A DNA stretch of 64,000 bases from Candidatus Levyibacteriota bacterium (GTDB taxonomy: Bacteria; Patescibacteriota; Microgenomatia; Levybacterales; UBA12049). Position 1 is the stretch's first letter, and the number at the start of each line of letters is the position of its first letter. The notes under the pieces are model-generated. The model did not search any database. It had not been told where the DNA came from and worked only from the letters and a program-made list of their open reading frames with translations. Positions 4,767 through 53,580 of the stretch are shown here, one piece after another. Location: assembly GCA_043823085.1 (NCBI GenBank), contig JBDRBE010000004.1, positions 269,992-333,991 of the forward strand, in the 5' to 3' direction. The position numbers and the translations under genes are program-made.

Positions 4767-4780
4767 AAATACGGCGGGCA

Positions 4781-4806: not shown

Positions 4807-4869
4807 TAAAATAACATTTAAATTTTAACAGATAAGAGTAAATCGAGCAAGATTAAGAATTTAAACTTT

Positions 4870-5748: not shown

Positions 5749-5880
5749 ATAGTGTCTTTGATGCTAGCATAGTTTTTTTACAAATGCAAGTGGTTTTTTC
5801 TTAAATACCTGTTAAAATACAGAGAGTAAAAATTTGTTTCCCGTACACGGGAGGGGTAAGGAAAGCTTATCCCGCATTTT

Positions 5881-26846: not shown

Positions 26847-27379
26847 TACGGTAAATCAGCTTTAATTGAAAACACGTATTGGTTAGCTTCCGTATCTATA
26901 GAAAGATTTTCAAGCGTAATTTTATTAAACATTTTTTTATCCGCCGCAAAAACCACTAAACTATCCATAAAATTATTTATTGCCGTAAGAGACATAGAAG
27001 AAGCTTTTATTGAAACATTTTTTTTGTTAACAGTCAGCGAGGTCATCGAAAGATCGACGGGCTTCTGTTGGACAATGGCATTTATAGTTCCATTAAAATT
27101 TGCTCGCTTAGATAAGAGACTTTCTATATTTTGCAATCTATCATTTACAATAAATAATTTTGCAATCTTTTGCTTTGAAGAATCAATATTGGCAGAAAGA
27201 GTTTTTTCTTGGTTTTGAAGGGACAAAAGAGGAGAACTAAGTTTTATAAAAAATACAAAAATAGAAGAAGTACAAACAAAAATGAGACAAAAAAACGCAC
27301 TTATTCGCAACAATATAACTCTCTTTTTTAATTTTGTAATTCTTTCTTTCTGCTTTGAAACTAAATTTATTTCACTCAT
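26846..27379 (-). CDS. type IV pilus assembly protein PilN-like
   Basis: Short cytoplasmic N-terminus, TM, coiled-coil periplasmic region; follows pilM. Confidence 0.55.
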   Translation of the reverse strand: MSEINLVSKQKERITKLKKRVILLRISAFFCLIFVCTSSIFVFFIKLSSPLLSLQNQEKTLSANIDSSKQKIAKLFIVNDRLQNIESLLSKRANFNGTINAIVQQKPVDLSMTSLTVNKKNVSIKASSMSLTAINNFMDSLVVFAADKKMFNKITLENLSIDTEANQYVFSIKADLP

Positions 27380-28403: not shown

Positions 28404-29251
28404 TATGTTGGCGAAAATAAAACGTATTGAAAAAATTCAGACGGAAGCTTGGGATATCCTTGATAAAAAGATACCCTTCTGTTAGTCGTACCGGAAGTTC
28501 CAGTAGAATCTATTACAGTTCCTTGAGACGGAAGCGCAATATTTCCCGATACGCCTATGAAACTCGATTTGTAAAGAGGCACAACTCTGACAACCAAGCC
28601 CGACGAGATACTATTTACCTCTGCCTTATAAGCAAAAGTTTTACCAAGCAGATTTTCGCCCAGCTTATTAATATTAGTTGAAAAGTTGTTCTGTGTTGCA
28701 CGCGAGCCGCATGGATCAAATACAGAACGGAACGAGGAAGAGCTGGAAACACTATTCCCAAAAATTAAAATTACTTCAAGCGCAGCGTTGTCACAATCAC
28801 CTAGGGCATTACTTCCCCAATAAAAGGTTAGTGATGATCCGGTCCATGTCGTTGAATAATCAGGAGTATTATCCGCCTTATGAGGAACCAGCCAAACATC
28901 CGCTCCGTCATTTGCATTTACGAGATTACCGCCATTGATTAAAAAATCCGTCCCCGAAAGGGATGTAACCGTAGTCGAAAAAGATGCTTTGTTCTCGCCT
29001 GTAAAATTACCGGCAACAGAGGTATTCTCTTTAAGCGCCTTTTCTATTCCTGCTTCAGCGGCCGAAAAAGCTTTCTGTGAATTTTCTTCTTCTGTTGAAG
29101 TTCGAAGATTGGTTACAGATCTTGAAATAAGCGCCAACCCAACTGTCATTGAAACAACCATAACTAAAACAACAATTAAAAATGCCTGCCCGCTATTGCT
29201 TCGCATCAAGCGATGCGGGCGGACCTGTCCTCTTTGCCTTGCATTATCCAT
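28403..29251 (-). CDS. PilX-like minor pilin / pilus assembly protein
   Basis: N-terminal RSNSGQAFLIVVLVMVVSM hydrophobic segment. In operon with pilM. Confidence 0.5.
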   Translation of the reverse strand: MDNARQRGQVRPHRLMRSNSGQAFLIVVLVMVVSMTVGLALISRSVTNLRTSTEEENSQKAFSAAEAGIEKALKENTSVAGNFTGENKASFSTTVTSLSGTDFLINGGNLVNANDGADVWLVPHKADNTPDYSTTWTGSSLTFYWGSNALGDCDNAALEVILIFGNSVSSSSSFRSVFDPCGSRATQNNFSTNINKLGENLLGKTFAYKAEVNSISSGLVVRVVPLYKSSFIGVSGNIALPSQGTVIDSTGTSGTTNRRVSFYQGYPKLPSEFFQYVLFSPT

Positions 29252-29303
29252 GTACTCTTAGAATAACAATTATTTTACGCCTATGTCAACCAAGCCAAAA
29301 GAG

Positions 29304-29900
29304 CTATCTTGCTAAATTTCTCAATACAACCGATGTTTGAAATGGTATTAAGGCCGAATTCTCCTGTAACGACACTCCGCTATCTGCAGCATAATTTTTT
29401 AAAGTAAATTTAATCCCTACCGATGGAGAATCTATATTGCTATTCTGACTGCATGTAAACGAGGTAGATACAGATGAACACGACTCTAACGTCACGCTAC
29501 TGGTGTCAAAAAGCGAGATGCGCTCTGTCAAACTACATACGCCATCTGTGTAATCGCCGTTAATTGATATTAAAGTATTTGAATCACCAGTCGTGCTTGT
29601 ACAACAGGCGTAAGTAAGATAGTTGCCCTCTGCAGTTAAAATAGTAATATGGTTTTGTGAGGAAGTCACTATGCAAGAAATTGGGTCCACTATATTTTTT
29701 GCATTTCTTATAGTTTTTGACATTTGAGAAATAGCACCGTTGCCATTCTGTCTAACAACAGTTAAAGCATTGGTCTTATTTGTTCCGCGAAGCGTCGAAA
29801 AAAGAATGGAAACGACAAAACCCCCTATTGCAATAACAACAATAACAACTACTAGTAATTCTATTAATGTGAAGCCTTTGGAAGTTGAAAGTTTTTTCAT
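29304..29900 (-). CDS. type IV pilin-like protein (prepilin-type N-terminal cleavage/methylation domain)
   Basis: KGFTLIELLVVVIVV. Confidence 0.75.
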   Translation of the reverse strand: MKKLSTSKGFTLIELLVVVIVVIAIGGFVVSILFSTLRGTNKTNALTVVRQNGNGAISQMSKTIRNAKNIVDPISCIVTSSQNHITILTAEGNYLTYACCTSTTGDSNTLISINGDYTDGVCSLTERISLFDTSSVTLESCSSVSTSFTCSQNSNIDSPSVGIKFTLKNYAADSGVSLQENSALIPFQTSVVLRNLAR

Positions 29901-30367
29901 GGGTTTGCCACGGTATTGAAATTAGAAAAACAAGACGAAATTTTAACGCTATTGCAAAAACCGGGTCTTTGGACACATTTGGCGTCAGACCAGCTGACAG
30001 TAACCGTTGCTTTGGTTTGATTATTTACACATGGAGAAGGACCATCAGGAGACACACCTCTGTCCAAATCAACTTCGCGAATATAAATACCAATATTTTG
30101 TTGGCAACTTGAGGCTACCCGCATATCTTCACCTAAACAATAATGTTTAGATAAGATAAGTGTCGCCCAATCAGAACTCTTATTAATTCCTCTTAATAAT
30201 TCCATTCCTTCCTGCGCGTACTGCGCGGCAAGGCTTTGATTTTTACTATACTGCGCGTTATTAAGAGAAGCAATTACAGCAGCTGTTATGGCAGATATTA
30301 CAGCAACTGCCGCCGCCATTGCCACTAAAGCTTCTATTAATGTCTGACCATTTTGGAAATTTCTCAT
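29897..30367 (-). CDS. type IV minor pilin-like protein
   Basis: NGQTLIEALVAMAAAV class III signal-like N-terminus. Confidence 0.65.
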   Translation of the reverse strand: MRNFQNGQTLIEALVAMAAAVAVISAITAAVIASLNNAQYSKNQSLAAQYAQEGMELLRGINKSSDWATLILSKHYCLGEDMRVASSCQQNIGIYIREVDLDRGVSPDGPSPCVNNQTKATVTVSWSDAKCVQRPGFCNSVKISSCFSNFNTVANP

Positions 30368-30371
30368 TAAA

Positions 30372-30947
30372 TTATTGTACTATGTTAATGTTACCGGCAC
30401 TATCAACCTCTATGGTTTTTTCAATGTCGCCAAAACCCTGCAATGTAATATTGCCCCCGTTTTTTACTCCGCCGACGACACTTTTGAAAAGAAAAAAAGT
30501 TGAGGAGTTTTCCTTAAATTCAACTTCCGAAGGAACTTTTTTATTCTCAATAGGATTATTTGTATTTGCAATGCTATCGTTACCACCACAAACAATATCA
30601 AACTCATAATTTGCATTTGTCTTGTTTTCATCATTCCGATCTTGACATAGTGATCCTCCAAGACCACAAATAAGCACTGCAAAACCTTTGAACGAATCGT
30701 TACCGCACATATTATTTTCTCCTTTTTGAATTGCCTGCGACATGGCCATTGACTTTGCCTTATTCAGCATCGTAATAACATCATAGGCCGCGGTATTCAT
30801 TGTTTGCATCCGGCTATAATTAACGTAAGAAGCAAGACCAAAGGTCGCAAGCATAGCCATAATAGAAAAGGCGACAAGAAATTCAATAAGCGTAAAACCT
30901 TTTCTACTAAATGCCAAAAACTGAAAATTGGAGATTAATTTTTTCAT
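30372..30947 (-). CDS. type IV pilin-like protein
   Basis: RKGFTLIEFLVAFSIMAM. Confidence 0.75.
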   Translation of the reverse strand: MKKLISNFQFLAFSRKGFTLIEFLVAFSIMAMLATFGLASYVNYSRMQTMNTAAYDVITMLNKAKSMAMSQAIQKGENNMCGNDSFKGFAVLICGLGGSLCQDRNDENKTNANYEFDIVCGGNDSIANTNNPIENKKVPSEVEFKENSSTFFLFKSVVGGVKNGGNITLQGFGDIEKTIEVDSAGNINIVQ

Positions 30948-31423
30948 GGGTTTTGTTTAACATAATATAAATTACTAGAACAAATACCGCTTCCTCCAGG
31001 TGAGGTAACCACCCCCTGAGAATCGCTTTTATTCTCGAGACATGCCGCCAGGGTATAATTCAGGTTATTATTTAAACTTAAATAGTAATAATTACCGCCA
31101 TTATAACAATCCGTACAAGCCGACGGATCTTTTGGAATATTTTGCATATAAGTTGCACCTTCATTTAATACTGTTGTATTTAACGTATAATCAGTCGCTG
31201 GAGGATAATTTCCGTAATCCGCCCGGTACATTTCAAGAGCCGACTGAATTTGTCCGATATCGGACTTCCTTTGCGCATCCCGCGTTCTTTGCCTAATCGA
31301 AATATAGTTGATTATAGAAAAAGAAAGCAAAATGCCGATAATTGCAATAACAACCAAAAGCTCAATTAAAGTAAAGCCTCTTCGTGAATTTTGCATTTTG
31401 AATTTCAACTTTGAATTTTGCAT
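30944..31423 (-). CDS. GspG/pseudopilin-like type IV pilin
   Basis: RRGFTLIELLVVIAIIGIL; RDAQRKSDIGQIQSALEMY is typical of GspG-like pilins. N-terminal tandem duplication MQNSKLKFKMQNS. Confidence 0.75.
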   Translation of the reverse strand: MQNSKLKFKMQNSRRGFTLIELLVVIAIIGILLSFSIINYISIRQRTRDAQRKSDIGQIQSALEMYRADYGNYPPATDYTLNTTVLNEGATYMQNIPKDPSACTDCYNGGNYYYLSLNNNLNYTLAACLENKSDSQGVVTSPGGSGICSSNLYYVKQNP

Positions 31424-31440
31424 TTTGAATTTTGAACTGT

Positions 31441-31935
31441 TTAAGGATTTACGTTTGCACTTGACAAGCCGTAATTACAAACGCCGCCGCAACTGGCATT
31501 GCTTGGAACATTCCGGCATTTATAATCTTTTACACCGTTCTTATAAAAACAGAGCTCTTTATCCGTACTATTATCTAGGCTAGCATAAATATAATAACTC
31601 TGTCCAGCTTCTAAATCAGAATAGTAAATATAATTTTTTGCTTCACTAGGATCTTTTGGTAAAACAGTCAAATATGGAATCCACTGCTGTCCCCAATCGG
31701 CAACAGAATCATCCAGTCTAACAATTCTAAAAAGTGGATTTTTTTGCGATGATTTGGGATATCGGCCGTGATTTTGATAATAATTTTCAAGAGCTGTTTG
31801 CAGTGTCTTAAGATCCGACTTTCTTCTTAAGTCGTTTGTTTTTTTAAAATCCTCGAGATACTTTGTGTTTTGTAAAATATATGCTCCTATAATTGCCAGA
31901 ACGATAATTATAAACAGTGTTTGAATTTTCTTCAT
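31441..31935 (-). CDS. pilin-like protein, paralog of 30944..31423, without a canonical GFTLIE motif
   Basis: Hydrophobic N-terminus; DLKTLQTALENYY; Cys pair near the C-terminus. Confidence 0.5.
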   Translation of the reverse strand: MKKIQTLFIIIVLAIIGAYILQNTKYLEDFKKTNDLRRKSDLKTLQTALENYYQNHGRYPKSSQKNPLFRIVRLDDSVADWGQQWIPYLTVLPKDPSEAKNYIYYSDLEAGQSYYIYASLDNSTDKELCFYKNGVKDYKCRNVPSNASCGGVCNYGLSSANVNP

Positions 31936-32723
31936 AACAATCTCAAAAATGGTATCAACTCAATTATTTCATGACTATAAAAAAACGCAAGTAATGTTCC
32001 TAAAACTAGAAACGGGCCAAAAGGGATTGTGTCCTTGGAAAACTTTTTCCTGCCAGCTATGACAAGCGCTAGCGCCACGAAAGCGCCGATAATAAAAGCC
32101 ATATAAAGCGCGATAATAATTTTTGGAAATCCCAAAAAAAGACCGGCCAAAAAAACATATTCAACATCGCCAAAGCCCATTCCTTTTCCTTTGGTAATCA
32201 AAAAGATAAGAAGGAAAAAGAAAAAAGCGCCAAAACCTGCCAAAAGATGAATCAGGAATAAGGAATTAAGAATTAGGGATACGTAGGCAAATGTCGCAAC
32301 AACGGCGACAAGAAGAATTCGGTCGGGGATAATCCCATATTTTAAATCGATAAAAAAAATAACGATGAGAGAGGAAACTATAAAAAGATAATAAATTAAT
32401 TCAGCAAAATATTTGATATTTGATATTTGATATTTGATATTTTCATTGGGGAAAAAAAGAAAAACTAGAACAAAAGTGATTCCAGTCGTTAACTCAACAA
32501 CCGGATAATAAAATGAAATAGGGGAGTGACAATAGCGGCAACGGCCTTTAAGAATAATAAAAGAAACAAACGGAATTAAATCATACCAAGCCAATTTTTT
32601 TTTACAGGCTTCGCAATGCGACCGGCCTTTAAATACTGACTCACCGCGGGGAAGTCTATCGATTACAACATTAAGAAAACTTCCAATACCAAGACCTAAA
32701 AAAAAGAGCAAAAATATAACCAC
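31932..32723 (-). CDS. pilD: prepilin peptidase (A24 family)
   Basis: CxxC...CxxC zinc motif (GRSHCEACKK...CRYCHSPIS), multiple TM segments, acidic catalytic residues. Contains a heptanucleotide repeat. Confidence 0.85.
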   Translation of the reverse strand: MVIFLLFFLGLGIGSFLNVVIDRLPRGESVFKGRSHCEACKKKLAWYDLIPFVSFIILKGRCRYCHSPISFYYPVVELTTGITFVLVFLFFPNENIKYQISNIKYFAELIYYLFIVSSLIVIFFIDLKYGIIPDRILLVAVVATFAYVSLILNSLFLIHLLAGFGAFFFFLLIFLITKGKGMGFGDVEYVFLAGLFLGFPKIIIALYMAFIIGAFVALALVIAGRKKFSKDTIPFGPFLVLGTLLAFFYSHEIIELIPFLRLL

Positions 32724-32775
32724 CTATATAGATTACCACAAATTCTTGTTTTTCTGTAGAATATTTTTGCGGCTG

Positions 32776-33213
32776 TTATTGACACGCACCTGATGCTGTC
32801 TCGCTGGCTGTTCCTTTTGCAGAACTCCAACACCAAACACTTCCAGCTGTTACAGGCGCTTTAAGCGTAGCATAAATTGCTATGTCATTGCATTTATTGC
32901 TTATCGAGCAAGTTGCCGGAACAAAAATATAACTCCCACCGCCTGGCGGTGTTGGTACATTTTTAAGATCTCCGCTAGTTACCAAATCACCTATAGTCGA
33001 TGTAAAAGTATTATTGGTCGTATAATAAGCCAATTCTGCCTGTCCGATTTGTTGGATATCGCTCTTTATTTTTGTGTCTGTCGCTTGATTTATCCTTTTG
33101 ATTGGATTAATTAACGTCATTAAACCAGCCGCTAATATTCCAAGTATGGCAATCACTATAATTAGTTCGATGAGGGTGAAGCCTTTTTGAGAAGTTTTAA
33201 ACAATTTTTTCAT
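32776..33213 (-). CDS. pilA: type IV pilin (major pilin candidate)
   Basis: QKGFTLIELIIVIAILGILAAG; C-terminal Cys pair. Confidence 0.8.
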   Translation of the reverse strand: MKKLFKTSQKGFTLIELIIVIAILGILAAGLMTLINPIKRINQATDTKIKSDIQQIGQAELAYYTTNNTFTSTIGDLVTSGDLKNVPTPPGGGSYIFVPATCSISNKCNDIAIYATLKAPVTAGSVWCWSSAKGTASETASGACQ

Positions 33214-33267
33214 TTTCTAATTTAGTGTAATCATAATTAATGCTCTTTGTCAATAGGGATAAAATTA

Positions 33268-34473
33268 TTATTGTATTGCAGACATGAGGCTATAAATTGG
33301 TGTAATAATAGAAATGATTAAAAAAGCCACGCCTACTCCCAAAATTATCATAATCATTGGTTCCAGGGCAGTCATCAGAGTTTTAACAGTCTGATCAACC
33401 TCCTGCTCAAAATATTCTGACACCTTGAGGAAAGACTCATCAAGTTTTCCCGTCTGTTCGCCAATTTTTGCCATTTGAACAAGAATCGGAGGAAAAAGAT
33501 TTGAATACATCATTGAGTCTCCAACAGTCATTCCTTTTTCAACTCGTTTTGATAAATCAGTGACAGCATTTTTGTAAAGAATATTACCTGTTATCTCGGC
33601 TACTTGATTTAAGGCTTCAACCACTAAAATCCCAGCTCCGACAAGAAGCGAAAACGTTCTCGAAAATTCAGTTAGAATAATTTCTTTAGAAAGCTTTCCA
33701 AAAATCGGAATTTTTAATTTAAAAGAATCGATAATAAGTTTTCCCGATTCGGTTTTGTTCCACCGCCTGTAAACAAAAGTTAAAATTATTGCCAAACCTA
33801 TTATTAAAGGCCAAAATGTAACAAGAAAATTAGACATGCCGATAACAATCCGCGTTGGGAGAGGCATTTGAATATTCATGCTCTCATAAAGCGTAGAAAG
33901 CTGGGGAATAACAAAAATCATCATAATAAAAACAACCGCAACCATGCCAATAATTACTATCGCAGGATACAAAAGAGCAGATTTAATTGAATCTTTAAGT
34001 TTTTTTTCTTTTTCAAGATTGTCGGCTAAACGCAAAAGCACTTTTTCCAAAAGTCCTGAACTTTCGGCAGCTTTTATAAGAGAAATATAAATCGGAGGAA
34101 AAATTTCAGTATGCAACAAAAGAGCAAGGGAAAGAGATTTTCCCCCTTCAATATCGGTAAGAATTGTCGACACAACCTCTTGTGTCATATCACCTTTAAC
34201 TTGTTCTTTTAAAACATTCAGGGATTGCGTTAAAGTTAAACCGGAGGCAAGCATTAACGAAAGCTGCCTTGTAAAAAGCATTAAATTAAAACCTCCAAAT
34301 TTCTTAAAGAATGAAGAAAAAGGTAAGGCTAATTTTGCCTGGTAAGGCGAAATTCTAATCGGCAGAAAATTATTATTGCGAAGATAAGTTGCGGCTTCGT
34401 TTATATCTCTTGCGTCAATAAATCCATGCACTATTTTTCCATCGCGAGAAACCGCTTTATACGAAAGTTTCAT
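33268..34473 (-). CDS. pilC: type IV pilus platform protein PilC (GspF family)
   Basis: Two T2SS-F domains and three TM regions. Confidence 0.85.
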   Translation of the reverse strand: MKLSYKAVSRDGKIVHGFIDARDINEAATYLRNNNFLPIRISPYQAKLALPFSSFFKKFGGFNLMLFTRQLSLMLASGLTLTQSLNVLKEQVKGDMTQEVVSTILTDIEGGKSLSLALLLHTEIFPPIYISLIKAAESSGLLEKVLLRLADNLEKEKKLKDSIKSALLYPAIVIIGMVAVVFIMMIFVIPQLSTLYESMNIQMPLPTRIVIGMSNFLVTFWPLIIGLAIILTFVYRRWNKTESGKLIIDSFKLKIPIFGKLSKEIILTEFSRTFSLLVGAGILVVEALNQVAEITGNILYKNAVTDLSKRVEKGMTVGDSMMYSNLFPPILVQMAKIGEQTGKLDESFLKVSEYFEQEVDQTVKTLMTALEPMIMIILGVGVAFLIISIITPIYSLMSAIQ

Positions 34474-34523
34474 CTTTTATTTTTTAATCTTTTCACTATT
34501 CACCATACGCTATGCGCTATTTA

Positions 34524-35591
34524 CTATCCAATCAGCCTTATCAATTCTTCAGGATGAACAGAGTAACCCGTTGCAATTTCCAAACTTACCATTCCTGAGA
34601 GAACAAGACTTGCCAGAGAGGCTTCCAAACTAATCATTCCAACATCTTGCGAGGTCTGAATAATCGAATCCAAAAGATGCGACTTTCCATCTCTTATATT
34701 TGTTGCAACGGCCGGCGTGCCAATTAAAACTTCTGCGGCCGGAATTCTTCCTCCGGCAATTTGCGGAAGGAGTCTTTGCGAAACAATACCTTTTAGAGTT
34801 GCTGACAGCTGAATTCTTATCTGAGGCTGCTGATGAGAAGGAAACGAATCTACAATTCTATCCACGCTTTGCGAGGCTGAATTAGTATGCAATGTCGAAA
34901 AAACCAAATGTCCGGTTTCGGCGACGGTAATTGCCGCGGCAATGGTTTCGGGATCACGCATTTCACCAACTAAAACAACATCCGGATCTTCTCTTAAAGC
35001 CGAACGAAGAGACATTGCCCAAGAATGTGTATCCGATCCCAACTCTCTTTGAGAAATAATGCTTTTGCTGTTTGGATAAACATATTCAATTGGATCCTCA
35101 ATTGTTAAAATATGGCAAGCTCTATTGATATTTATTTCATTTATAATTGCCGCTAAAGTTGTCGATTTTCCATGACCGGTCGGACCGCAAAGCAAAACAA
35201 AGCCTTGTTTCAAGGTAGTAAACGAATGAAGGATTTTGGGAAGATGAAGTTCCTCAATCGTTTTTATATTTGGCGGCAAAAATCTAAAAGCCGCGGACAA
35301 ATATCCTCTTTGATAGTAAAGATTTGAACGAAACCGTCCCGCGTCGCCATAAATACCTCCGCCAAATCCAAGCGAAAAATCCAATTCTTTATTGGTGACT
35401 AAAAGCTCTTTTTGTTCCGGCGTTAAAAGAGAAAAAATCATTTCCTCAACGTCTTCGCGTGTCAAGACGTTATAACCGGATAAACTAGAAAGTGCTCCAT
35501 CAACGCGAATAGAAGGCGGAATGCCCGGTAAAAGATGCAAATCAGAAGCTCTATTCTTAATAGTCAAACTTAATAATTCCTGAATATTCAT
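34524..35591 (-). CDS. pilT: twitching motility ATPase PilT
   Basis: Walker A GPTGHGKSTTLAA, Asp box, His box; about 355 aa, typical PilT size. Confidence 0.85.
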   Translation of the reverse strand: MNIQELLSLTIKNRASDLHLLPGIPPSIRVDGALSSLSGYNVLTREDVEEMIFSLLTPEQKELLVTNKELDFSLGFGGGIYGDAGRFRSNLYYQRGYLSAAFRFLPPNIKTIEELHLPKILHSFTTLKQGFVLLCGPTGHGKSTTLAAIINEININRACHILTIEDPIEYVYPNSKSIISQRELGSDTHSWAMSLRSALREDPDVVLVGEMRDPETIAAAITVAETGHLVFSTLHTNSASQSVDRIVDSFPSHQQPQIRIQLSATLKGIVSQRLLPQIAGGRIPAAEVLIGTPAVATNIRDGKSHLLDSIIQTSQDVGMISLEASLASLVLSGMVSLEIATGYSVHPEELIRLIG

Positions 35592-35592
35592 A

Positions 35593-37374
35593 CTATTCTT
35601 GCGCTACTCTCAAAACTTCTTCAACCGATGTTACGCCTTCAATAACTTTAAAATATCCGTCTTGTTTCATTGTAATCATCCCCTCCACGATAGCCTGTTT
35701 TTCAATTGTCGCGCTGTCCGAATTTTCCAAAAGAAGATGAGCAATTTTATCCGAAACAATCATTACCTCAAAGATTCCAACTCTTCCTAAATACCCTGAA
35801 TTTGAGCATGCAGGACATCCTTTCCCCTTATAAAATTTAAATTCTCCCTGCGTTTTTGGTAAAAGGTTTCCCAATACATTTTTAATCTCATTTATTATTG
35901 GAGACGGGGGAGAATAAGACTCTTTGCAATTAGAACAAATTTTTCGAACAATTCTTTGTCCAACCAGTGCATTCATTGTGGAAGCAAGCAAAAAAGGTTC
36001 CGCTCCTAAATCCAAAAGTCGAGGAAGCACCCCCGCGGCATTTGAAGTATGCAACGTTGAAAAAACCAAATGTCCGGTTAAAGCCGCCTGCAAAGCCAAA
36101 TCGTTTGTTTCTTCATCTCTTATTTCTCCAACCAAAATTATGTTTGGATCCTGACGAAGAAAAGACCTCAATCCTGTGGCAAAAGTAAGCCCGACAGCTG
36201 GATTAATCTGCACTTGATTAATTCCTGCTATTTGATACTCAACCGGATCTTCCAAAGACATAATATTAACCCTTGCGGTGTTTAGTTTTGAAAGAATGGA
36301 ATAAAGCGTTGTTGTTTTTCCCGAACCTGTCGGACCGCAAACAATAATTATTCCATGCGGACGTAAAATTGCAGTTTCTAAATTCTTCAAAGTCATACCT
36401 GAAAGGCCAAGTTCGGGAAGCGTTGGTATGCCTCCTGATTTTCGCAAAAGTCTCATCACAATTTTTTCTCCATCAACGGTTGGCAGGACAGAAATACGCA
36501 AATCAACTTCTTCATTTCCTATTTTAAAATTAAAACGTCCGTCTTGAGGAGAACGGTGTTCATCGATTTTCATTTCCGATAAAATTTTAATTCTGGAAAC
36601 GACCGCTTCCTGAACGGTTTTTGGAAGACTCAACCTGTCATATAAAATTCCGTCAATTCTATAGCGAACCCTGACTCTATCACTTTGAGGCTCAATATGA
36701 ACATCCGAAGCTCGACTTGTAACAGCATATTCTAAAATAGTTGTGACAATTTTAGCAATTGGCGCCTCTTTAATAATTTGCGATATTTGATTGCTATCGA
36801 CAACTCGGGTTTTAGGCATTTCCTCAGTTTCTCTTAGAGCTTGTCCGACTTCTGTTACTAATTCTTGACGATATTGTTCTTCAATAACTTTTGATATTTC
36901 CGAAGGAGTGGCTGCAAACGATTTGACGTCAAGCCCTGTTTTTTGACGAATAAAGGAAATCGCTTCAAGATCTGCAGGATTACCCATGGCAACAGAAAGA
37001 GTTTTATTTTTCTCGTCGTATAAAAAAGGGATTACTTTAAAACGCTCGGCAACTGCCCGCGGAATTAAATTTATGGTTTGGGGAGAAAATGAAGTAGTTG
37101 CAAGCGATACGAAAGGGACTCCTAAAAGTTTTGCACGGGCTTCTGTAAATTTATCTTCGGGAACAAGATTTAAAGCTTCTATAATTTCTCCAATAGGTTT
37201 TCCCTCCGTCGCGCTTTTAACCTTAGCCTCTCTGTATTGGCTCTGTGTTATAAGGCGATCGGCAAATAAAATATCCGCTATATTTTTTGGCGTCTGACCG
37301 AAATCCTGCGGTATGCTAGCTTTTCCACTTAAATCCAAACCCGATGTTGCTTGATTGTAAAAATCATTGGGCAT
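35593..37374 (-). CDS. pilB: type IV pilus assembly ATPase PilB (GspE family)
   Basis: GPTGSGKTTTLY Walker A; C-terminal tetracysteine CSNC...CPAC; N-terminal GspE-N domain. Confidence 0.9.
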   Translation of the reverse strand: MPNDFYNQATSGLDLSGKASIPQDFGQTPKNIADILFADRLITQSQYREAKVKSATEGKPIGEIIEALNLVPEDKFTEARAKLLGVPFVSLATTSFSPQTINLIPRAVAERFKVIPFLYDEKNKTLSVAMGNPADLEAISFIRQKTGLDVKSFAATPSEISKVIEEQYRQELVTEVGQALRETEEMPKTRVVDSNQISQIIKEAPIAKIVTTILEYAVTSRASDVHIEPQSDRVRVRYRIDGILYDRLSLPKTVQEAVVSRIKILSEMKIDEHRSPQDGRFNFKIGNEEVDLRISVLPTVDGEKIVMRLLRKSGGIPTLPELGLSGMTLKNLETAILRPHGIIIVCGPTGSGKTTTLYSILSKLNTARVNIMSLEDPVEYQIAGINQVQINPAVGLTFATGLRSFLRQDPNIILVGEIRDEETNDLALQAALTGHLVFSTLHTSNAAGVLPRLLDLGAEPFLLASTMNALVGQRIVRKICSNCKESYSPPSPIINEIKNVLGNLLPKTQGEFKFYKGKGCPACSNSGYLGRVGIFEVMIVSDKIAHLLLENSDSATIEKQAIVEGMITMKQDGYFKVIEGVTSVEEVLRVAQE

Positions 37375-40468: not shown

Positions 40469-40488
40469 CCTCACATCGATTACATATT

Positions 40489-41304
40489 ACCAAAGGTGGC
40501 ATACCTAATCCACCTCTAAGGTGGATTTCTATTGACACCTCTGGTTTTCGACACTAGAATAAATTATGCCCGGAAGAAATACTATTCTTGCGAACGGGGA
40601 AACATATCATATTTTTAATAGAGGAGTTGCCTCTCAACCAACATTTATAGACAAAAAAGATTATCAGAGAGTTATGGATAGTTTCTTCTATTACCAAAAC
40701 ATTACTCCTCCAATAAAGTATTCAAAATTTTTAATGATTTCCGCTAAAGAGAGAGACAATATTATAAATAATTTAAGAAAAAAGAAATTTTTCCATGCTG
40801 ATATCATTGCTTATTGTTTTATGCCTACTCATTTCCATTTATTGTTAAGACAAAATGAAGAAAATGGAATCTCAAAATTTGTAGGAAACTTCACCAACAG
40901 TTATACAAGATACTTTAATACAAAACGGGAAAGAAAAGGACCAATCTTTGAAGGCAAATTCGGTTCTGTAAGAATTGAAACAAGCGAACAACTACTTCAT
41001 GTTTCGAGATACATTCACCTTAATCCTTACTCGTCTTATCTTGTTAAAACAACTCAGGAGCTCGAGTCTTTTACCTATTCATCATTTAATGAATATATCG
41101 CAGGTAATAGTAATCTTTGTAATAAAGACTTCATTCTGGAAAATTTTAAGACCGCTAAGGAATATAAAAAATTCGTTTTTGATCAAGCAGACTACCAAAA
41201 AAAACTAAACAACATTAAACACCTTCTCTTGGAGAATTAGCGGAAATACCAAAGGTGGCATACCTAATCCACCTCTAAGGTGGATTTCTATTGACACCTC
41301 TGGT
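40489..41304 (+). mobile_element. IS200/IS605-like element: HUH (Y1) transposase gene flanked by identical 57-bp hairpin-containing ends in direct orientation
   Basis: accaaaggtggcatacctaatccacctctaaggtggatttctattgacacctctggt occurs at 40489..40545 and 41248..41304. Each copy holds the ccacc-tctaa-ggtgg hairpin. Confidence 0.7.
40566..41240 (+). CDS. IS200-like / REP-associated tyrosine (HUH Y1) transposase
   Basis: HUH motif PTHFHLLL; catalytic Tyr region LHVSRYIHLNP. Confidence 0.7.
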   Translation: MPGRNTILANGETYHIFNRGVASQPTFIDKKDYQRVMDSFFYYQNITPPIKYSKFLMISAKERDNIINNLRKKKFFHADIIAYCFMPTHFHLLLRQNEENGISKFVGNFTNSYTRYFNTKRERKGPIFEGKFGSVRIETSEQLLHVSRYIHLNPYSSYLVKTTQELESFTYSSFNEYIAGNSNLCNKDFILENFKTAKEYKKFVFDQADYQKKLNNIKHLLLEN

Positions 41305-47818: not shown

Positions 47819-50287
47819 ATGACTAATATCGGTAAAATTCAGCCCGTTGAAATCACAACGGAAATGAAGAAAAGTTATCTTGATTACGCCATGAGCGTAA
47901 TTGTTGCCCGTGCTTTACCTGATGTTAAAGACGGTCTAAAACCGGTCCACAGACGCATCCTCTACGCCATGCACGAAATGAATCTAACCCACAGCGCTAA
48001 ATACGCAAAAAGTGCAAAAATTGTCGGAGAAGTCATGGGGAAATATCATCCTCACGGAGATATGCCAATTTATGACGCTCTTGTCCGGCTTGCACAGAAT
48101 TTTTCCATGCGTTATCCGCTTATTGACGGTCAGGGTAACTTTGGTTCCATGGACGGCGATCCGCCGGCAGCAATGAGATACACAGAGGCCAGACTTGCCG
48201 CAATAACTTCCGAGATGCTTTACGATTTAGACAAAGAGACTGTCTTGTATACGCAAAATTTTGACGCGACTCTTAAAGAACCTCTATATCTGCCTGCAAA
48301 ACTGCCGAATTTACTTTTGATGGGATCTGAAGGCATTGCTGTTGGCATGGCAACCAAAATTCCTCCGCATAATCTTGGAGAAGTTATTGACGCGATTAAT
48401 TTTATGATCGAAAAAACAACTATTTCCAAAGATGAAAAACATACCTTTAACACATCGGGCATGACCATTGACGAACTTTTAGAATTTATTAAAGGCCCGG
48501 ATTTTCCAACATATGGCGTAATTTACGATATATCAGAAATAAAAAATGTATATTTAACAGGACGGGGACGAATAATTATTCGCGGAAAAGCGGATATTGA
48601 AGATATTGGCAATGGAAAATCCGCGATTATAATTACCGAACTTCCGTATCAAGTTAACAAAGCACTGCTTGTGGCGCGCATTGCCGATTTGGCAAAAGAG
48701 AAAAAGGTTGAAGGAATTTCAGATCTCCGCGACGAATCGGACAGACATGGAATAAGAGTTGTTGTCGAATTAAAAAGAGACACTACGCCAAAAAAAGTTT
48801 TGAATAATTTGTTTAAACACACCGCTCTTCAAACAATTTTTCCGGCAAACATTGTTGCTTTGGTAGACGGAACACCCCAAACATTAAACCTTAAAACAAT
48901 TTTGGAAGAATATTTAAAACATCGTTTTTCTGTGATTTTCAAACGGTCTGAATTTGAACTCGTCCAGTCAAAAGCAAGACTGCATATTTTAAAAGGGTTA
49001 AAAATTGCGGTTGATAATATTGACGCCGTTATAAAAACCATCCGCGCCTCAAAAACACAAGAAGAGGCAAAGCAAAATTTAATGGAAAAATTCAAGTTAT
49101 CGGATCTTCAGGCAACTGCAATTTTGGACATGCAACTCCGCCGTCTTGCAGCCCTTGAAAGACAAAAAATTGAAGACGAGTACGAAATGGTTAAAGAAAC
49201 AATTGAATATCTTGAGGATTTGCTTGCCAATCCGCCAAAAATTTTAAAAGTAATAAAAGGCGAGCTTTCAAATCTCAGAGAGAAATATCATGATGAGCGA
49301 AGAACCAGAGTTTTTAAAAGTAAAGTCGGCGAGTTTTCCGAAGAAGACCTCATTCCAAATGAACCAACAGTTATAACACTGACAACAACCGGCTATATTA
49401 AAAGACAATCGTTGAATAGTTTTAGAACCCAGCATCGTGGCGGCAAAGGCGTAAGAGGAATGACTACAAAAGATGAAGATGGAATTATGCATATTCAATA
49501 TGCCCAAACCCATGATAATATTCTTTTCTTTACCAACAAAGGAAAAGTTTATCAGCTTCGCGCTTTTGAAATTGCCGAAAGCTCCAGAACCAGTAAAGGC
49601 AGTGCCATTATAAATTTATTGAGCATAGAAGTTGGTGAAAAAGTCGAATCTTTTGTAGTTTATGGAAAAAACCAAGGAAAAAAATATGTCTTTTTAACGA
49701 CAAGAAAGGGTACGGTCAAAAAATCAGCTCTTTCGGAATTTGAAAATATCAGAAGAAGCGGAATTGCGTCCATTAAACTTGATAAAAACGACGAACTTGT
49801 TTGGTCCGATTTAACAAGCGGAGACAGTGATGTTTTAATCGTTACAAAAAACGGCAAGGCCATAAGATTTTCGGAAAAAACGGCAAGGCCATTGGGACGA
49901 AACACCATGGGCGTTCGAGGAATAAAAATTACAGGAGACGACGAAGTAATCGGAATGGATGTTATCGAAAAAGGACAAAACCCTGATCTTTTGACCATTA
50001 TGGAAAGAGGTCTTGGTAAAAAAACCCCGGTTAATCAATTTCACAAGCAAAGCAGAGGAGGACAGGGAGTAAAAGTAGCAAAAGTCACACAAAAAACCGG
50101 AAAAGTCGCTTTTGCCCAAGTAATTCCCCAAATTTGCGAAGAAATTATTGTCACATCCAAACGCGGACAAATTGTTAAACTTGAACTCTCGTCTATTCCA
50201 AAGCTTTCGCGGGCAACACAAGGCGTAATTTTAATGAGATTTTCAAATCAGGCAGACAGCGTAACCTCGGGAACTTGTCTTGGTTAA
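47819..50287 (+). CDS. gyrA: DNA gyrase subunit A
   Basis: Catalytic Tyr region ([10 protein letters not shown]), QRDR-like region, C-terminal beta-pinwheel repeats. Confidence 0.95.
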
Positions 50288-50295
50288 TAAAAAAC

Positions 50296-51336
50296 ATGAA
50301 AATTGATGGAAAAGAAATTGCTAAAAATATCCTCGAAGATCTCAAAATTAGAGTTGAAAAATTAAAAGAGAAAAATATAATCCCAGGACTTTCGATAATT
50401 TTAGTTGGAGATAACCCGGCTTCCAAAGCTTATGTTCGGCAAAAAGAATTAAAAGCAGAAAAAATAGGAGCAAATGCTGTCGTTTTGAATTTAGATTCTA
50501 AAACTTCAAATTCTGAATTACTAAAAACAATTGAGCAATGGAACAATGATAGCAATATTCATGGAATGATTGTTCAGCGACCTCTTCCTTCGCATATTGA
50601 TGAGAAAAAAATTGATCTTGCAACCGACCCCAAAAAAGATATTGACTCCTTCCATCCAAAGTCTCCTTATCCAATGCCTCTTGCCGCAGCAGTTTTGAAA
50701 ATTTTAGAGGAAATTTATTTATTTACAAATGGCGCGGGAAGACACAAAATTTTCGCAAAGCGAGGTACAACGCATCATAACAAAGATTTTTATCGCGGGG
50801 AGTCTTTTCATGAGGCGATGTCTTCACTAGAGTCGCCGAAGGTGACCGTATCCCGAGACGAGCCACTTGACGGCGAGTCGGAGGGACGCTTGTGTTTGAA
50901 GACTCGCCAAACTGAAAAGACGACCTCAGCGATAAACCCTATCAACTTTAAAGAGTGGTTAAAATCTAAAAGAATTGTCGTGATTGGTAAAGGGAAAACA
51001 GGCGGGGGCCCAACTATTCAAATGCTAAAAAAAATGGGGGTTGAACTTCAAATTATCGACAGCAAAACCCAAAATCCAAAAGATTTCACAAAATCTGCAG
51101 ACATAATTATTTCAACTGTCGGAAAACCAAATATTTTGAAGCCGGAAATGATTAAAAAGGGAATAATTTTAATAAGTGTGGGCCAGCATAAAGGAATTGA
51201 CGGAAAATTCCATGGAGATTATGAGGAAAATGAAATTAAAAATATCGCCTCTTTTTACACCCCAACTCCCGGGGGCATCGGCCCTGTCAACGTCGCCATG
51301 CTTCTTGAAAACCTCGTCACCGCCGCCCAAAATTGA
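50296..51336 (+). CDS. folD: methylenetetrahydrofolate dehydrogenase/cyclohydrolase with an in-frame insertion of about 76 aa and a recoded 3' end
   Basis: N-terminal MKIDGKEIA...YVRQKELK; C-terminal TPTPGGIGPVNVAMLLENL. GC-rich insert between ILEE and IVVIGKG. Confidence 0.8.
   Translation: MKIDGKEIAKNILEDLKIRVEKLKEKNIIPGLSIILVGDNPASKAYVRQKELKAEKIGANAVVLNLDSKTSNSELLKTIEQWNNDSNIHGMIVQRPLPSHIDEKKIDLATDPKKDIDSFHPKSPYPMPLAAAVLKILEEIYLFTNGAGRHKIFAKRGTTHHNKDFYRGESFHEAMSSLESPKVTVSRDEPLDGESEGRLCLKTRQTEKTTSAINPINFKEWLKSKRIVVIGKGKTGGGPTIQMLKKMGVELQIIDSKTQNPKDFTKSADIIISTVGKPNILKPEMIKKGIILISVGQHKGIDGKFHGDYEENEIKNIASFYTPTPGGIGPVNVAMLLENLVTAAQN
50712..50940 (+). repeat. GC-rich in-frame insertion in folD sharing motifs with the purH/carB palindromic elements
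   Basis: Contains tcatgaggcg...cctcagcg termini, atcccgagac core, and ggcgagtc/gactcgcc inverted repeats. About 50% GC against about 33% in flanks. Confidence 0.5.
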
Positions 51337-51370
51337 TTTTCATCTAGCCTTGTGTTAATATCACGCTAAT

Positions 51371-52033
51371 ATGAGCAAAGAAAAGAAAGCAGGAGAACTA
51401 GCAAGACGTATTGAAGAAAAGAGACAAGAATCAATACGAGAAGAGGTCACTAAATTATTAGAAAAGATAAATCAAAAAATTTGCAGAATGAAGCAGTGGC
51501 GAGTAGATATCGAGGAAGCAGGAGTAGAAAATGTCTCTGTGCCAGAAGTTATACTGGCAACTGATGAATTAACAAAAGAAGCATTTGAAGAACTTGAAGT
51601 TAAACATATTCCAATCGTTATTCTGTCAGCTCCCCAAGAAAGGCAACAAGGTCCGATAAAAGTGTTCGTTACCAATGATCATCCTATTGATCATTTTAGT
51701 GTCACAAATTTTGATTTATCTGCTCATCTTCCCTTAGTCACAAGCCCCATTTGCTTAACAACTGCATTTAAAGATTATCGATATCCAGAGAATAGATATT
51801 ATAGTTTTTTCCCAATAGAAGGACGGATGAATCCTTGTCTCCCTTATTTACCAGGAGTTGATGGAACTAACTCTGCAAGTTTTCAAGATCCACGAGATGA
51901 AGAAAGTATGACCATAATTGTAATTGATGCCCGTTTTCCAACATCAGAAAGAGATGTGACATTTTTTCCAGCTGAAGTTCCGAGAGATGCAATGGAAACA
52001 CTTAGCGGTGTGCAATTTTTTCGCGATCGATAA
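51371..52033 (+). CDS. hypothetical protein (220 aa), cargo of an insertion at the folD 3' end
   Basis: ORF lies between the two copies of the 24-bp core caacgtcgccatgcttcttgaaaa. Charged N-terminus. Confidence 0.55.
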   Translation: MSKEKKAGELARRIEEKRQESIREEVTKLLEKINQKICRMKQWRVDIEEAGVENVSVPEVILATDELTKEAFEELEVKHIPIVILSAPQERQQGPIKVFVTNDHPIDHFSVTNFDLSAHLPLVTSPICLTTAFKDYRYPENRYYSFFPIEGRMNPCLPYLPGVDGTNSASFQDPRDEESMTIIVIDARFPTSERDVTFFPAEVPRDAMETLSGVQFFRDR

Positions 52034-52203
52034 CAAAGTTTCGAATTCCCACATCCACTTCTTTCCACTTTAATGACATATATTATTAAAGTGATTTATA
52101 CTTATCTCAACTCTATGACTTCTAGCGTTCATTTTATAACTTCGTTGCTTTTGGATTATCACGGCAATCTTTCCGAGGACCGTCCCCATTATTTATCTCC
52201 CTT

Positions 52204-52261
52204 CAACGTCGCCATGCTTCTTGAAAATTTAGTCGTTGCAACAGAAACTAGCTCAACATAA
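52204..52261 (+). pseudogene. displaced native-like 3' end fragment of folD (encodes ...SPFNVAMLLENLVVATETSST*)
   Basis: 24-bp identity with folD 51288..51311 followed by AT-rich codons for the same C-terminal peptide. Confidence 0.6.
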
Positions 52262-52317
52262 AAATTCAGAATGAAGATTCTATCAGAATTATGCAGATGC
52301 GAAGAGAACTTCAGTTT

Positions 52318-52440
52318 CTAGTTCTTTTTTGCGTCTTTCCTCTTTTTCCTCCAACTTCCGTCTTTATTTCTGTCTCTCGGTTGTTTCCCTCCGTGTTCGT
52401 CCCTGACATAAGGACCTTTCCCCAATCTTCTATCTCCCAT
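52318..52440 (-). CDS. possible 40-aa highly basic small protein (MGDRRLGKGPYVRDEHGGKQPRDRNKDGSWRKKRKDAKKN)
   Basis: AAGGAGGTG 6 nt upstream of the ATG on the minus strand, inside a 360-bp CT-rich intergenic region. Below the ORF-track size cut-off. Confidence 0.3.
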   Translation of the reverse strand: MGDRRLGKGPYVRDEHGGKQPRDRNKDGSWRKKRKDAKKN

Positions 52441-52623
52441 TTGCTCCACCTCCTTTCATAAAAAAATCCTATTTTTCAAATATAATCGTCGCAACTTTAG
52501 TATACCACCACAACGAAGCGGAATCATCATTTTTTCCCAATTGACAACAAATACCCCTTCTGTTAAAGTAAAATCCCAGAGCGACCTGCCATCCGCGTAG
52601 CGCGAGCAAAAGCCCTGGTTTTT

Positions 52624-53580
52624 ATGGATAAAATTAACGGAAAGTTCAAAGGTAAAGATATTCTTTCCCTCGATCAATTCTCCCCAAAAGACATCAGTAT
52701 CCTCTTTAAATTAACTAAAAAAATGAAAAATATCGCGTATAATGCCAGACCATCAAAGGTACTCCATGGTAATATTGTTGTTCTTCTTTTTTATGAACCC
52801 TCCAGTCGTACATTTGGATCTTTTTCAGCTTCTGCTAAACAATTAGGAGGACAAACAGTTGAAATTCAAAACCCTCAAGAATTTTCATCGGTTTCAAAAG
52901 GAGAAACATTCGAAGATACCATGCGAGTTTTTGAAGCATATTGCGACGCAATCGTAATTCGCCACCCGGAAGTCGGCAGCGCAAAAAAAGCAGCCGATTT
53001 TGCAAAACGTGTTCCTGTTATTAATGCCGGTGACGGAGTAGGAGAACACCCAACGCAAACTCTTTTAGATCTCTATACTATTTATGAGAAATTTCAAAGA
53101 CTCGATAATTTAATAGGCGTTGCCGTAGGAGATATTCTTAATGGAAGAGCCGTTAAATCATTAATTCGAGGTCTTTCTTTGTTTCCGAAAAACAGGTTCT
53201 ATCTTCTTTCGCCAAATGAACTCAAACTTTCAAGAGAAGATTTTGATAATTTCAAAAAACTCAAAATAAAATTAATAGAAATAAAAAGCGAAAAAGAAAT
53301 TCCAAAAAACGCTAATTTTTGGTATTGGACAAGAACACAAAAAGAACGATTTAAAACTAAAAAGGCATACGAAAAAGTGAAAAATCGTTTTATTCTGACA
53401 AATGATCTACTAAAAAAATATGGGAATAAAAATTTGATTTTAATGCACCCATTGCCAAGAGTTGGAGAAATTGAAACAGATATTGATATTGACCCACGGG
53501 CAGTTTATTTAACTTCGCAAACAAGAAATGGAATGTATATTCGCATGGCGCTTTTAGCGCTAGTTTTAGGTAAAATATGA
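52624..53580 (+). CDS. pyrB: aspartate carbamoyltransferase catalytic subunit
   Basis: EPSSRTFGSF, HPTQ, HPLPRV motifs. Confidence 0.9.
   Translation: MDKINGKFKGKDILSLDQFSPKDISILFKLTKKMKNIAYNARPSKVLHGNIVVLLFYEPSSRTFGSFSASAKQLGGQTVEIQNPQEFSSVSKGETFEDTMRVFEAYCDAIVIRHPEVGSAKKAADFAKRVPVINAGDGVGEHPTQTLLDLYTIYEKFQRLDNLIGVAVGDILNGRAVKSLIRGLSLFPKNRFYLLSPNELKLSREDFDNFKKLKIKLIEIKSEKEIPKNANFWYWTRTQKERFKTKKAYEKVKNRFILTNDLLKKYGNKNLILMHPLPRVGEIETDIDIDPRAVYLTSQTRNGMYIRMALLALVLGKI

Follow-up and report, generated by a model that had tools for sequence, protein, structure and literature searches.

Probable insertion of a single orphan gene with replacement of the folD 3' end in a Candidatus Levyibacteriota bacterium

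Integration into the end of a host gene, with restoration of that gene by the incoming DNA, is a well-described behaviour of mobile elements. ICESt1 and ICESt3 integrate in the 3' end of fda, and SXT integrates in the 5' end of prfC, bringing a new promoter and a new N-terminus with it. Bacteria of the candidate phyla radiation (CPR) have genomes of about 1 Mb in which recognisable mobile elements are few and lineage-specific orphan genes (ORFans) are many. Here a gene-end duplication was analysed in a 64,000-nt stretch of a Candidatus Levyibacteriota genome (GenBank assembly GCA_043823085.1, contig JBDRBE010000004.1, positions 269,992 to 333,991; hereafter the window), in which the end of folD occurs twice, on either side of a single 220-codon open reading frame (ORF220). 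Our analysis indicates that a segment was in all likelihood inserted with replacement of the folD end. The arrangement belongs to the known kind, gene-end integration that restores the gene, and is unusual in its minimal size, its lack of a recombinase and its ORFan cargo.

In common with gene-end integrative and conjugative elements (ICEs), integrative and mobilizable elements (IMEs) and genomic islands, the folD unit is bounded by direct repeats of which one lies in the gene end, the reading frame is restored by the element, the native end is left on the far side, and the length of the repeat falls within their 8–60 bp range. SXT in prfC mirrors a second insertion of the window, at maf. The folD unit differs from these elements in measuring only 0.9 kb, in carrying a single ORFan and no integrase, excisionase or transfer function, in having no known related autonomous element, and in possessing a sister copy (contig L001, described below) without a detectable second repeat. 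Searches for a related autonomous element at the same site recovered no other context of ORF220 or of its junctions in the protein, viral and phage collections.

The repeat itself, TCAACGTCGCCATGCTTCTTGAAAA (hereafter the core; Table 1), is an exact 25-nt direct repeat with a start-to-start distance of 916 nt, one base longer than the 24 nt reported in a preliminary description of this DNA; 891 nt of unique DNA lie between the copies, and the whole unit (51312–52227) comprises these plus one core copy. Allowing up to three mismatches, the two copies were the only matches in 64 kb and none occurred in 100 dinucleotide-preserving shuffles, while the second copy was recovered at E=1e-9 (blastn-short, 11 kb searched), a match far above chance. 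Beyond the first copy the live folD reads aac ctc gtc acc gcc gcc caa aat tga (NLVTAAQN-stop), and beyond the second the sequence reads aat tta gtc gtt gca aca gaa act agc tca aca taa (NLVVATETSST-stop), such that a former folD end of 11 codons and a stop persists 916 nt downstream as a 59-nt in-frame relic. Mismatches between the copies number 0/25 in the core and 13/25 in the following 25 nt (Fisher p=3e-5), which excludes both chance and a simple duplication with uniform drift. Local alignment detected no significant folD similarity upstream of the second core copy. The live gene is intact, with its C-terminal domain (PF02882) matched to profile position 157/160; its body is host sequence, and its last eight codons and stop are supplied by the insert.

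Core DNA is conserved in the folD genes of relatives, where 21–23 of the 25 nt are identical. Comparison of the folD tails of 73 relatives showed that LVTAAQ matches the family pattern V/I/L-x-A-A/T-E/Q, which argues that the replacement end is a real folD tail from some other lineage and not random DNA. Peptide sequence was rejected as a means of telling the native tail from the foreign one, as both lie within the variation of these relatives. The AT-rich tail, initially regarded as host-like, is thus not callable as native from its peptide alone, and the apparent direction of the replacement rests on topology and codon composition. The two tails had also been said to encode the same peptide; they are similar, with five of eight residues shared. 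The reported GC-rich end was borne out insofar as the last six to seven codons are unusual, with GC at third codon positions (GC3) of 4/6 in comparison to 0–3/6 in closer relatives, but the codons for PGGIGPVNVA, where the GC-rich patch sets in upstream of the core, are GC3-rich in related folD genes too.

The comparison set consisted of 32 folD loci from GTDB genomes and JGI metagenomes, all retrieved around folD and referred to here by L-numbers. The order gyrA-folD-pyrB-carA-carB was conserved in relatives wherever downstream DNA was present, and in L014, L021 and L027 (63–72% identity) the distance from the folD stop to the pyrB ATG is approximately 75 nt. Because relatives keep gyrA-folD-(75 nt)-pyrB, the additional segment in the window is an insertion, and no second copy of the folD end was found in the 24 relatives with a readable folD end (0/24). 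These results uphold two claims of the preliminary description, namely that the unit (916 bp, put there at about 910 bp) is an insertion, here judged against the family arrangement (L014, L021, L027), and that it supplies a new gene end, being found here to open with a genuine folD-type tail which now ends the gene, with a second in-frame tail stranded downstream. The sole relative that shares the GC-rich end, L001, carries the open reading frame as well.

Most of the spacer in relatives is occupied by a conserved leader (ctttgttaaagt.aaatcccaga ... ctggttttttt), which had no Rfam match at E<=1 and may act as an attenuator. As the window retains this leader, two extra segments lie between the folD body and the leader, the 916-nt unit and a further stretch of about 290 nt. 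The latter (52262–52555) is strongly pyrimidine-rich on the plus strand and contains a very basic 40-aa ORF on the minus strand (52318–52440) that was called by gene callers, has a strong Shine-Dalgarno sequence and is preceded by AAAGGAGGTG; neither DNA nor peptide similar to this segment was present in any retrieved relative locus. In L025 the folD-pyrB interval spans 630 nt (1004–1635) and holds two ORFs, one of 90 aa on the minus strand and a membrane-like one of 63 aa on the plus strand. Such other small ORFs point to the folD-pyrB interval as a recurrent site, or hotspot, of small-gene gain.

Table 1. Coordinates of the features discussed (positions in the window unless another contig is named).
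Feature	Position	Strand	Remarks
Live folD	50296..51336	+	346 aa from gene-caller ATG; PF00763 and PF02882 matched; 346-aa call in Logan contig too
Core copy 1	51287..51311	+	Inside folD, codons VNVAMLLE; left recombination junction
Replacement folD end	51312..51336	+	cc tc gtc acc gcc gcc caa aat tga, ..LVTAAQN-stop; same in L001
Promoter-like TTGATT-N17-TAATAT	51333..51361	+	Overlaps folD stop; ends 9 nt before ORF220 ATG
ORF220	51371..52033	+	ORFan; N-terminal charged helix, then beta-rich domain
3' arm	52034..52202	+	Non-coding; includes hairpin; homologous to L001 to ~52197
Core copy 2	52203..52227	+	Right recombination junction; folD relic starts here
Displaced folD tail	52228..52261	+	..LVVATETSST-stop, in frame with core copy 2; AT-rich codons as in clade pattern
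Second lineage-specific segment	52262..52555	.	~290 nt between relic and pyrB leader; absent from relatives
Ancestral folD-pyrB spacer	52556..52623	+	Conserved leader directly before pyrB ATG; kept in L014, L021
maf insert	4867-4922 and 5878-5933 (repeat)		ORF276 on minus strand; repeat 56 nt, 96%; spacing 1011 nt
gyrA-end repeat of L018	2696-2735 and 3509-3548 (L018)		Last 39 nt of gyrA + 1 nt, exact 40 nt; spacing 813 nt
Type IV pilus cluster	27372-37374	minus	PilM, two T2SSE ATPases, T2SSF, prepilin peptidase, several pseudopilins
RAYT-like (IS200-type Y1) transposase gene	40566-41240		Perfect 58-nt direct repeats with hairpins, 40488-41304; between ahcY and gyrB
XerC/D-like tyrosine recombinase	63243-63983	minus	XerD/XerC models 219-230 bits; gene cut by window end

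Four further assemblies of the strain extend across both cores and show the same structure at 99.7–100% identity, namely Logan SRR27458547, a JGI 3300014656 contig retrieved twice (L003, L013) and ENA ERZ27247128, and a fifth contig (Logan SRR27458548) begins downstream of the relic and matches at 100%. This recurrence indicates that the structure is not an assembly artefact. A clean empty site would read ...GGCCCTG-core-TTTAGTCGTTGC... (junction string GGCCCTGTCAACGTCGCCATGCTTCTTGAAAATTTAGTCGTTGC) and a circular form ...TTATTTATCTCCCT-core-CCTCGTCACC... (junction string CATTATTTATCTCCCTTCAACGTCGCCATGCTTCTTGAAAACCTCGTCACCGCC). Look-ups with the folD, pyrB and small-ORF proteins recovered same-strain contigs only, all of those that span the site being occupied, and no same-species empty site was found; folD scans of GTDB genomes and JGI metagenomes returned only relatives at <=72% identity and the same strain. 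Contig-level searches yielded no circular junction, and neither the core nor the GC-rich tail had an exact match among viral contigs.

The cargo of the unit proved to be as first described, one 220-aa ORF with no recombinase domain in 51312–52202. ORF220, which we treat as cargo, is identical to ABH816_03805 of a Candidatus Levyibacteriota metagenome-assembled genome. No family was assigned to it in Pfam, PHROG, NCBIfam or PADLOC, and no relative was found in IMG/VR or INPHARED. Its sole homologue was P0002, at 76% identity, in a word index of 5.8 billion protein clusters and an exhaustive HMMER search of 1.84 billion representatives; in these collections ORF220 was restricted to this folD junction in two lineages. 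The proportions of differing non-synonymous (pN) and synonymous (pS) sites between ORF220 and P0002 were 0.121 and 0.245, respectively (Fisher p=4e-4), and the only indel was of one codon, which marks ORF220 as a genuine coding gene subject to moderate purifying selection. In composition it resembles its host (GC 37%, GC3 0.21). AlphaFold2 returned an unusable model for ORF220 (predicted local distance difference test, pLDDT, 38). The promoter-like hexamers upstream are TTGATT and TAACAT in L001; the sequence in the window lies below the threshold of the consensus scan and, taken as a promoter, would give a nearly leaderless ORF220 mRNA without a Shine-Dalgarno sequence.

In the 3' arm a 28-nt hairpin (52066–52093, 110 nt from the unit end) was present in the minimum-free-energy fold, and one of its base pairs is altered on both sides between the window and L001 (T-A to C-G). 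No terminal inverted repeats were found at the unit ends and no Rfam family in 50200–52700. RNA structure was considered as an explanation of the locus and rejected, the live junction folding no better than its shuffles (z +0.46) and the relic region worse (z +2.35). The well-conserved centre of ORF220 showed no RNA covariation in the two sequences at hand, and an antisense 67-aa ORF was discarded because it is not kept in L001.

L001 is a 1630-nt ENA contig (ERZ28564264, sample SAMN03202994) that contains folD with the identical GC-rich tail, followed by ORF219 and by an arm whose homology to that of the window extends to about 52197, and it ends 241 nt past ORF219. Within the core, L001 and the window differ at 5/25 positions; directly to its right they share 28 identical nt (to 51339), a run that is unremarkable at 84% overall identity. 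In the 241 nt after ORF219 no second core or folD relic was significant, alignments being no better than shuffles, and the last ~45 nt beyond the arm homology likewise held no significant folD relic. The final 24 nt encode MLKYQNGK, which resembles pyrB N-termini (MDKINGKFKGKD in the window), an identification of pyrB that rests on eight codons. L001 therefore looks like a folD-module-pyrB arrangement without duplication, of the type a donor would have, as far as so short a contig allows.

Sequence divergence between the window and L001 was calculated for codons of conserved amino acids and was found to differ at 23/162 of these in ORF220/ORF219 and at 63/157 in folD (p=1.7e-7), or 0.30 and 0.75 of saturation, respectively. 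Codon bias was rejected as an explanation of why ORF220 has so low a synonymous divergence, after each gene had been normalised to its own saturation. The divergence of ORF220 is a mosaic, with codons 1–160 at 0.21–0.33 of saturation and codons 161 to the end at 0.65, and the arm is as diverged from L001 as folD is (51–62% identity over most of its length, 78% at the hairpin). The low divergence of the left part indicates that this part of the module, 540 nt or more, goes back to a later ancestor than the host genes do and hence passed between lineages. Such mosaic divergence is typical of recombination between lineages and is evidence that the cassette, or part of it, was probably exchanged after the lineages had diverged. 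The probability that a neutral 25-nt relic stays unchanged over half of the window-L001 divergence was calculated as 4e-6 to 0.02. As a neutral relic would not be expected to remain identical at 25/25 positions, the duplication looks younger than the split from the L001 lineage.

Two further gene-end duplications were identified. At maf, in the window, the repeat consists of the first 53 nt of the gene and 3 upstream nt; the right-hand copy belongs to the intact maf, which therefore has insert DNA upstream of it, and the maf insert is a mirror image, at a 5' end, of that in folD. Its ORF276 is a singleton ORFan with no homologue in the 5.8 billion protein clusters and no viral relative. Kinship between ORF276 and ORF220 was considered and rejected (BLASTP E=0.07, owing to a charged helix only), as was kinship between the folD and maf repeats, DNA alignments of which were no better than shuffles. 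At the gyrA end of L018, the interval between the repeats carries an 84-aa ORF and a Trp-repressor-like gene that is bracketed by identical 26-nt palindromes. L008 (~2700–3560) shares this module and its location; there the relic has decayed, the live gyrA tail differs and the first ORF is unrelated. The 26-nt palindrome occurs a third time at L008 7476–7509. Between L018 and L008, pS was 0.69 for the repressor gene, 0.56–0.61 for gyrA and 0.61 for folD. This gyrA-end insert of Gottesmanbacteria-like contigs is an architectural parallel only. Three gene-end duplications around small modules thus occur in about 230 kb of CPR DNA, albeit in a biased sample of loci all retrieved around folD.

Among the mechanisms that could have produced the folD locus, the one we place first, tentatively, is that the unit is a module of one gene, gained by horizontal transfer, which entered the final 50 nt of folD through the host's own homology-dependent recombination, with no dedicated cassette integrase. 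The donor would have been a related Levyibacterium with ORF220 already placed behind folD, as in L001, and its DNA, once taken up, would have been joined at one point inside the core and at another at 52202/52203. This could have occurred by a single reciprocal Campbell-type crossover between the chromosome and a circular or circularised donor made up of core, tail, ORF220 and arm or, equivalently, by a homologous joint in the conserved folD core and an illegitimate joint at the core start. The event would postdate the split from the L001 lineage, and the element-borne tail would have kept folD whole while the old tail was pushed downstream.

Several observations are consistent with this proposal. 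The insert opens with sequence orthologous to its target, as core plus tail are folD, and we also count in its favour the donor-type order of L001, the mosaic divergence of ORF220, its host-like composition, and the presence in the window of pilus genes, RecG and RarA. The pilus cluster may represent DNA-uptake machinery and so be relevant to acquisition by transformation. No motif is common to the folD core, the maf 56-mer and the gyrA 40-mer of L018, which argues for a mechanism based on homology to the target and not on a recognition site. At the right joint, the L001 arm reads ..GATTGAAC.., the window ..CCCTTCAAC.. and folD ..CCTGTCAAC.., leaving 3–5 nt of possible microhomology; the letters at this joint are ..TTGAAC.. 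in L001 and ..TTCAAC.. in the window.

Precedents for such a route exist. Homology-facilitated illegitimate recombination was reportedly described by de Vries and Wackernagel in 2002 and by Prudhomme et al. in 2002, and shares with the folD locus one homologous anchor in a conserved gene, a second joint without homology and independence from any element-borne enzyme. Transformation of S. pneumoniae produces merodiploids, in which a duplication keeps an intact copy when the cassette hits an essential gene (PMC3784515), and E. coli conjugation has been studied in the same connection (PMC3240628). These processes have in common with the folD locus that survivors of a hit in an essential gene keep an intact copy, and they account for an arrangement without duplication such as that in L001.

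A number of points weigh against this explanation. Published anchors of homology-facilitated illegitimate recombination are usually at least 150 nt long in comparison to 25 nt here, and its usual outcome is an insertion-deletion; published transformation duplications span 100–900 kb between long repeats, in comparison to 25–59 nt here. With an anchor of 25 nt, RecA-type recombination works at its lower limit, and recombination of linear DNA usually leads to replacement or insertion-deletion and not to duplication, so that a further step must be assumed, be it fill-in, passage through a circle or unequal exchange between sisters. The proposal does not account for how a circle with a folD end first arose. 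The GC-rich tail is unlike the AT-rich tails of close relatives and nearer to those of the Gottesmanbacteria-like L008 and L018 (13/18 nt), which fits an element carrying an attachment-site mimic from a former host. In L018 the 40-nt repeat is perfect although its module is as diverged from that of L008 as the host genes are; the equation of perfect with recent is therefore not watertight and is weaker than the neutral calculation suggests. Furthermore, ORF220 is represented by just two lineages, and L001 ends 241 nt past its ORF.

Alternatively, the unit may be a site-specific integrative cassette, or the decayed remnant of a larger element, in which the two cores are attL and attR and the recombinase acts in trans. 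Its attachment site attP would then carry a mimic of the folD end from a former host, and the tyrosine or serine recombinase would be encoded elsewhere. We consider this possible but on balance rather unlikely, though it is a close second to the homology-anchored route. An exact identity block that adjoins non-homologous DNA at one edge and a recoded gene end at the opposite edge is standard att architecture. Attachment repeats typically measure 8–60 bp, and cis-mobilizable elements (CIMEs), which the remnant would resemble, have lost the integrase and kept attL and attR (PMC5704250). This alternative also accommodates a left junction common to two lineages, a module less diverged than the host gene, the resemblance of the GC-rich replacement tail to L008/L018, a XerC/D-like recombinase 11 kb away and the recurrence of the architecture at maf in the window and at gyrA in L018 and L008. 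On the other hand, none of the three modules contains a recombinase, their three cores have no common motif, which would demand several trans-acting specificities in a genome of about 1 Mb, and the folD core has no dif-like dyad symmetry. L001 has no attR at the expected place, the composition of ORF220 is host-like, and in the collections searched the unit turned up neither in a virus nor in another genomic context, nor was an empty site or a circular junction found. The insertion and the supply of a gene end are supported, but the designation of the unit as a classic integrative element is not, as no empty site, circle or cognate recombinase was found; its mobilisation in trans, proposed at the same time, did not find support, as ORF220 occurs at this folD junction only, in two lineages, and L001 has no detectable second core.

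The XerC/D-like gene, approximately 11 kb from the insert, is the sole recombinase detected in the 64-kb window. It scores below the equivalog cut-offs of the Xer models (329.6 and 335.15 bits) and reaches 114 bits on the integron-integrase model, whose cut-off is 265 bits, and is best regarded as XerC/D. Some integrative elements (IMEX) exploit XerC/D at dif. They share with the folD unit the lack of a recombinase of their own and a short site duplicated at both ends, and use a host tyrosine recombinase, a Xer-type gene being present in the window; they differ in that the folD core lies inside a gene without dif-like arms around a centre and in that IMEX carry no gene-end mimic. By inspection, the core region has only a 4–5 nt TTCAA/TTGAA dyad, in copy 2 alone, and is not dif-like. 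Integron cassettes resemble the folD unit in their size of about 1 kb, single ORF, lack of a recombinase and, were the folD unit mobile, mobilisation in trans, whereas the folD unit has no attC-type palindrome at its end, no integron integrase, attI or array, has a promoter-like sequence of its own and lies inside a housekeeping gene.

A broader possibility is that CPR bacteria harbour a family of tiny (0.8–1 kb) integrase-less cassettes, each with one lineage-specific ORF and a replacement terminus, that insert site-specifically at folD, maf and gyrA and are moved in trans by a Xer-like enzyme or a protein of the cassette itself. We regard this as improbable. The preliminary description had grouped the folD and maf insertions in one class, and the shared architecture was confirmed, but ORF276 is unrelated to ORF220 and the repeats have no common motif; for the wider class of integrase-less cassettes, what recurs is a footprint, with no evidence of one family or one enzyme.

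The order of events could also have been the reverse, in that ORF220 was resident before the window and L001 lineages split and the relic, together with the small-ORF segment (52203–52555), arrived later from an AT-tailed close relative. The core is the most conserved DNA of the folD end (21–23/25 in relatives of 65–85% identity) and the tails are hypervariable, so orthologous ends of close relatives would produce just such a pattern of identity followed by divergence; the C-terminal third of ORF220 and the arm are moreover as diverged from L001 as folD is, and L001 has no relic. However, this history is very unlikely. It takes more steps than two simple insertions into folD-spacer-pyrB, it requires an ancestor to lose and then regain the tail, the spacer and the pyrB leader, no relative was found with the small-ORF segment after folD, and the low synonymous divergence of ORF220 codons 1–160 stays unexplained.

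Slightly less probable still is a transposition-like insertion, possibly catalysed by ORF220 itself, in which wide staggered cuts and fill-in generate a target duplication of 25–58 nt. Near-perfect long repeats do surround small modules at maf (56 nt, 96%), at gyrA of L018 (40 nt, 100%) and at the gene for a tyrosine transposase associated with repetitive extragenic palindromes (RAYT and REP, respectively; 58 nt, 100%), and ORF220 has no recognisable fold, which makes a novel enzyme conceivable. A target duplication cannot, however, give a tail that differs from the relic at 13/25 positions next to a core identical at 25/25. The module ends have no terminal inverted repeats or subterminal hairpins, ORF220 carries no nuclease, transposase or recombinase signature, no second context of the module was found, and the RAYT repeats are REP-like and of a known system, L034 having a homologous RAYT gene with REP-like repeats. 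With respect to DDE or HUH transposons (IS200/IS605, RAYT-mobilised), no inverted repeats were found at the ends of the unit, and the repeat continues as a recoded gene end. A free-standing homing endonuclease is similarly not indicated, as ORF220 gave no GIY-YIG, HNH, LAGLIDADG or PD-(D/E)xK match and the target is duplicated. Finally, a chance repeat, an in-situ duplication with drift or a chimeric assembly, for which only the overall commonness of short repeats in AT-rich DNA would speak, can be practically dismissed, being refuted by the shuffles (0/100), E=1e-9, the 0/25 versus 13/25 mismatches, the four spanning assemblies and the relatives without the segment.

Whichever route applies, the locus offers a clean, datable case in which an orphan gene with its own promoter-like sequence entered the end of an essential gene, which a spare end kept functional. 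As the architecture recurs at maf, 46 kb away, and at the gyrA end of Gottesmanbacteria-like contigs, duplicated conserved gene termini may be a recurrent footprint of gene gain in CPR bacteria that can be searched for systematically, and the case bears on the poorly understood arrival of ORFans in their small genomes. Were the insertion truly site-specific and catalysed in trans, it would represent a new minimal kind of mobile cassette; were it homology-dependent, it would show how streamlined genomes gain novel genes by way of DNA uptake and short conserved anchors. The locus would matter much more if excision in reads or a shared mechanism emerged.

The window as a whole consists of housekeeping genes, with the addition of the type IV pilus cluster, RecG, RarA and, at the right edge, the XerC/D-like recombinase; around the insert the genes are those for a proton-pumping pyrophosphatase, gyrA, folD, pyrB, carA and carB. 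A 34-nt repeat at 34884 and 36046 lies inside the two paralogous pilus ATPase genes. The RAYT gene of the window and its 58-nt repeats belong to the known REP/RAYT system, and the homologous gene of L034 has its REP-like repeats around lepA; the system was considered as a mobiliser of the folD unit and rejected, as ends and target features do not fit. At the left of the window, a tRNA-Val(GAC) gene (4692–4766) is located within a split tRNA-Val-like gene on the minus strand (4624–4806; 5' part 4767–4806, 3' part 4624–4680), the halves of which would make a complete tRNA if joined; ARAGORN and Rfam call the inner gene only.

The folD gene itself bears a second peculiarity, an in-frame GC-rich (52–56%) insert of about 70 codons between its two domains (50729–50940). 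This insert folds as one long hairpin (minimum free energy -77.6 kcal/mol, z=-4.3, with 0/200 shuffles as stable), and had no Rfam match and no further copy in the window. At the same interdomain position, L001 carries a different insert (200–310) that is AT-rich and also palindromic (z=-2.6). In this respect the folD interdomain insert resembles the palindromic elements inserted in frame in Rickettsia genes.

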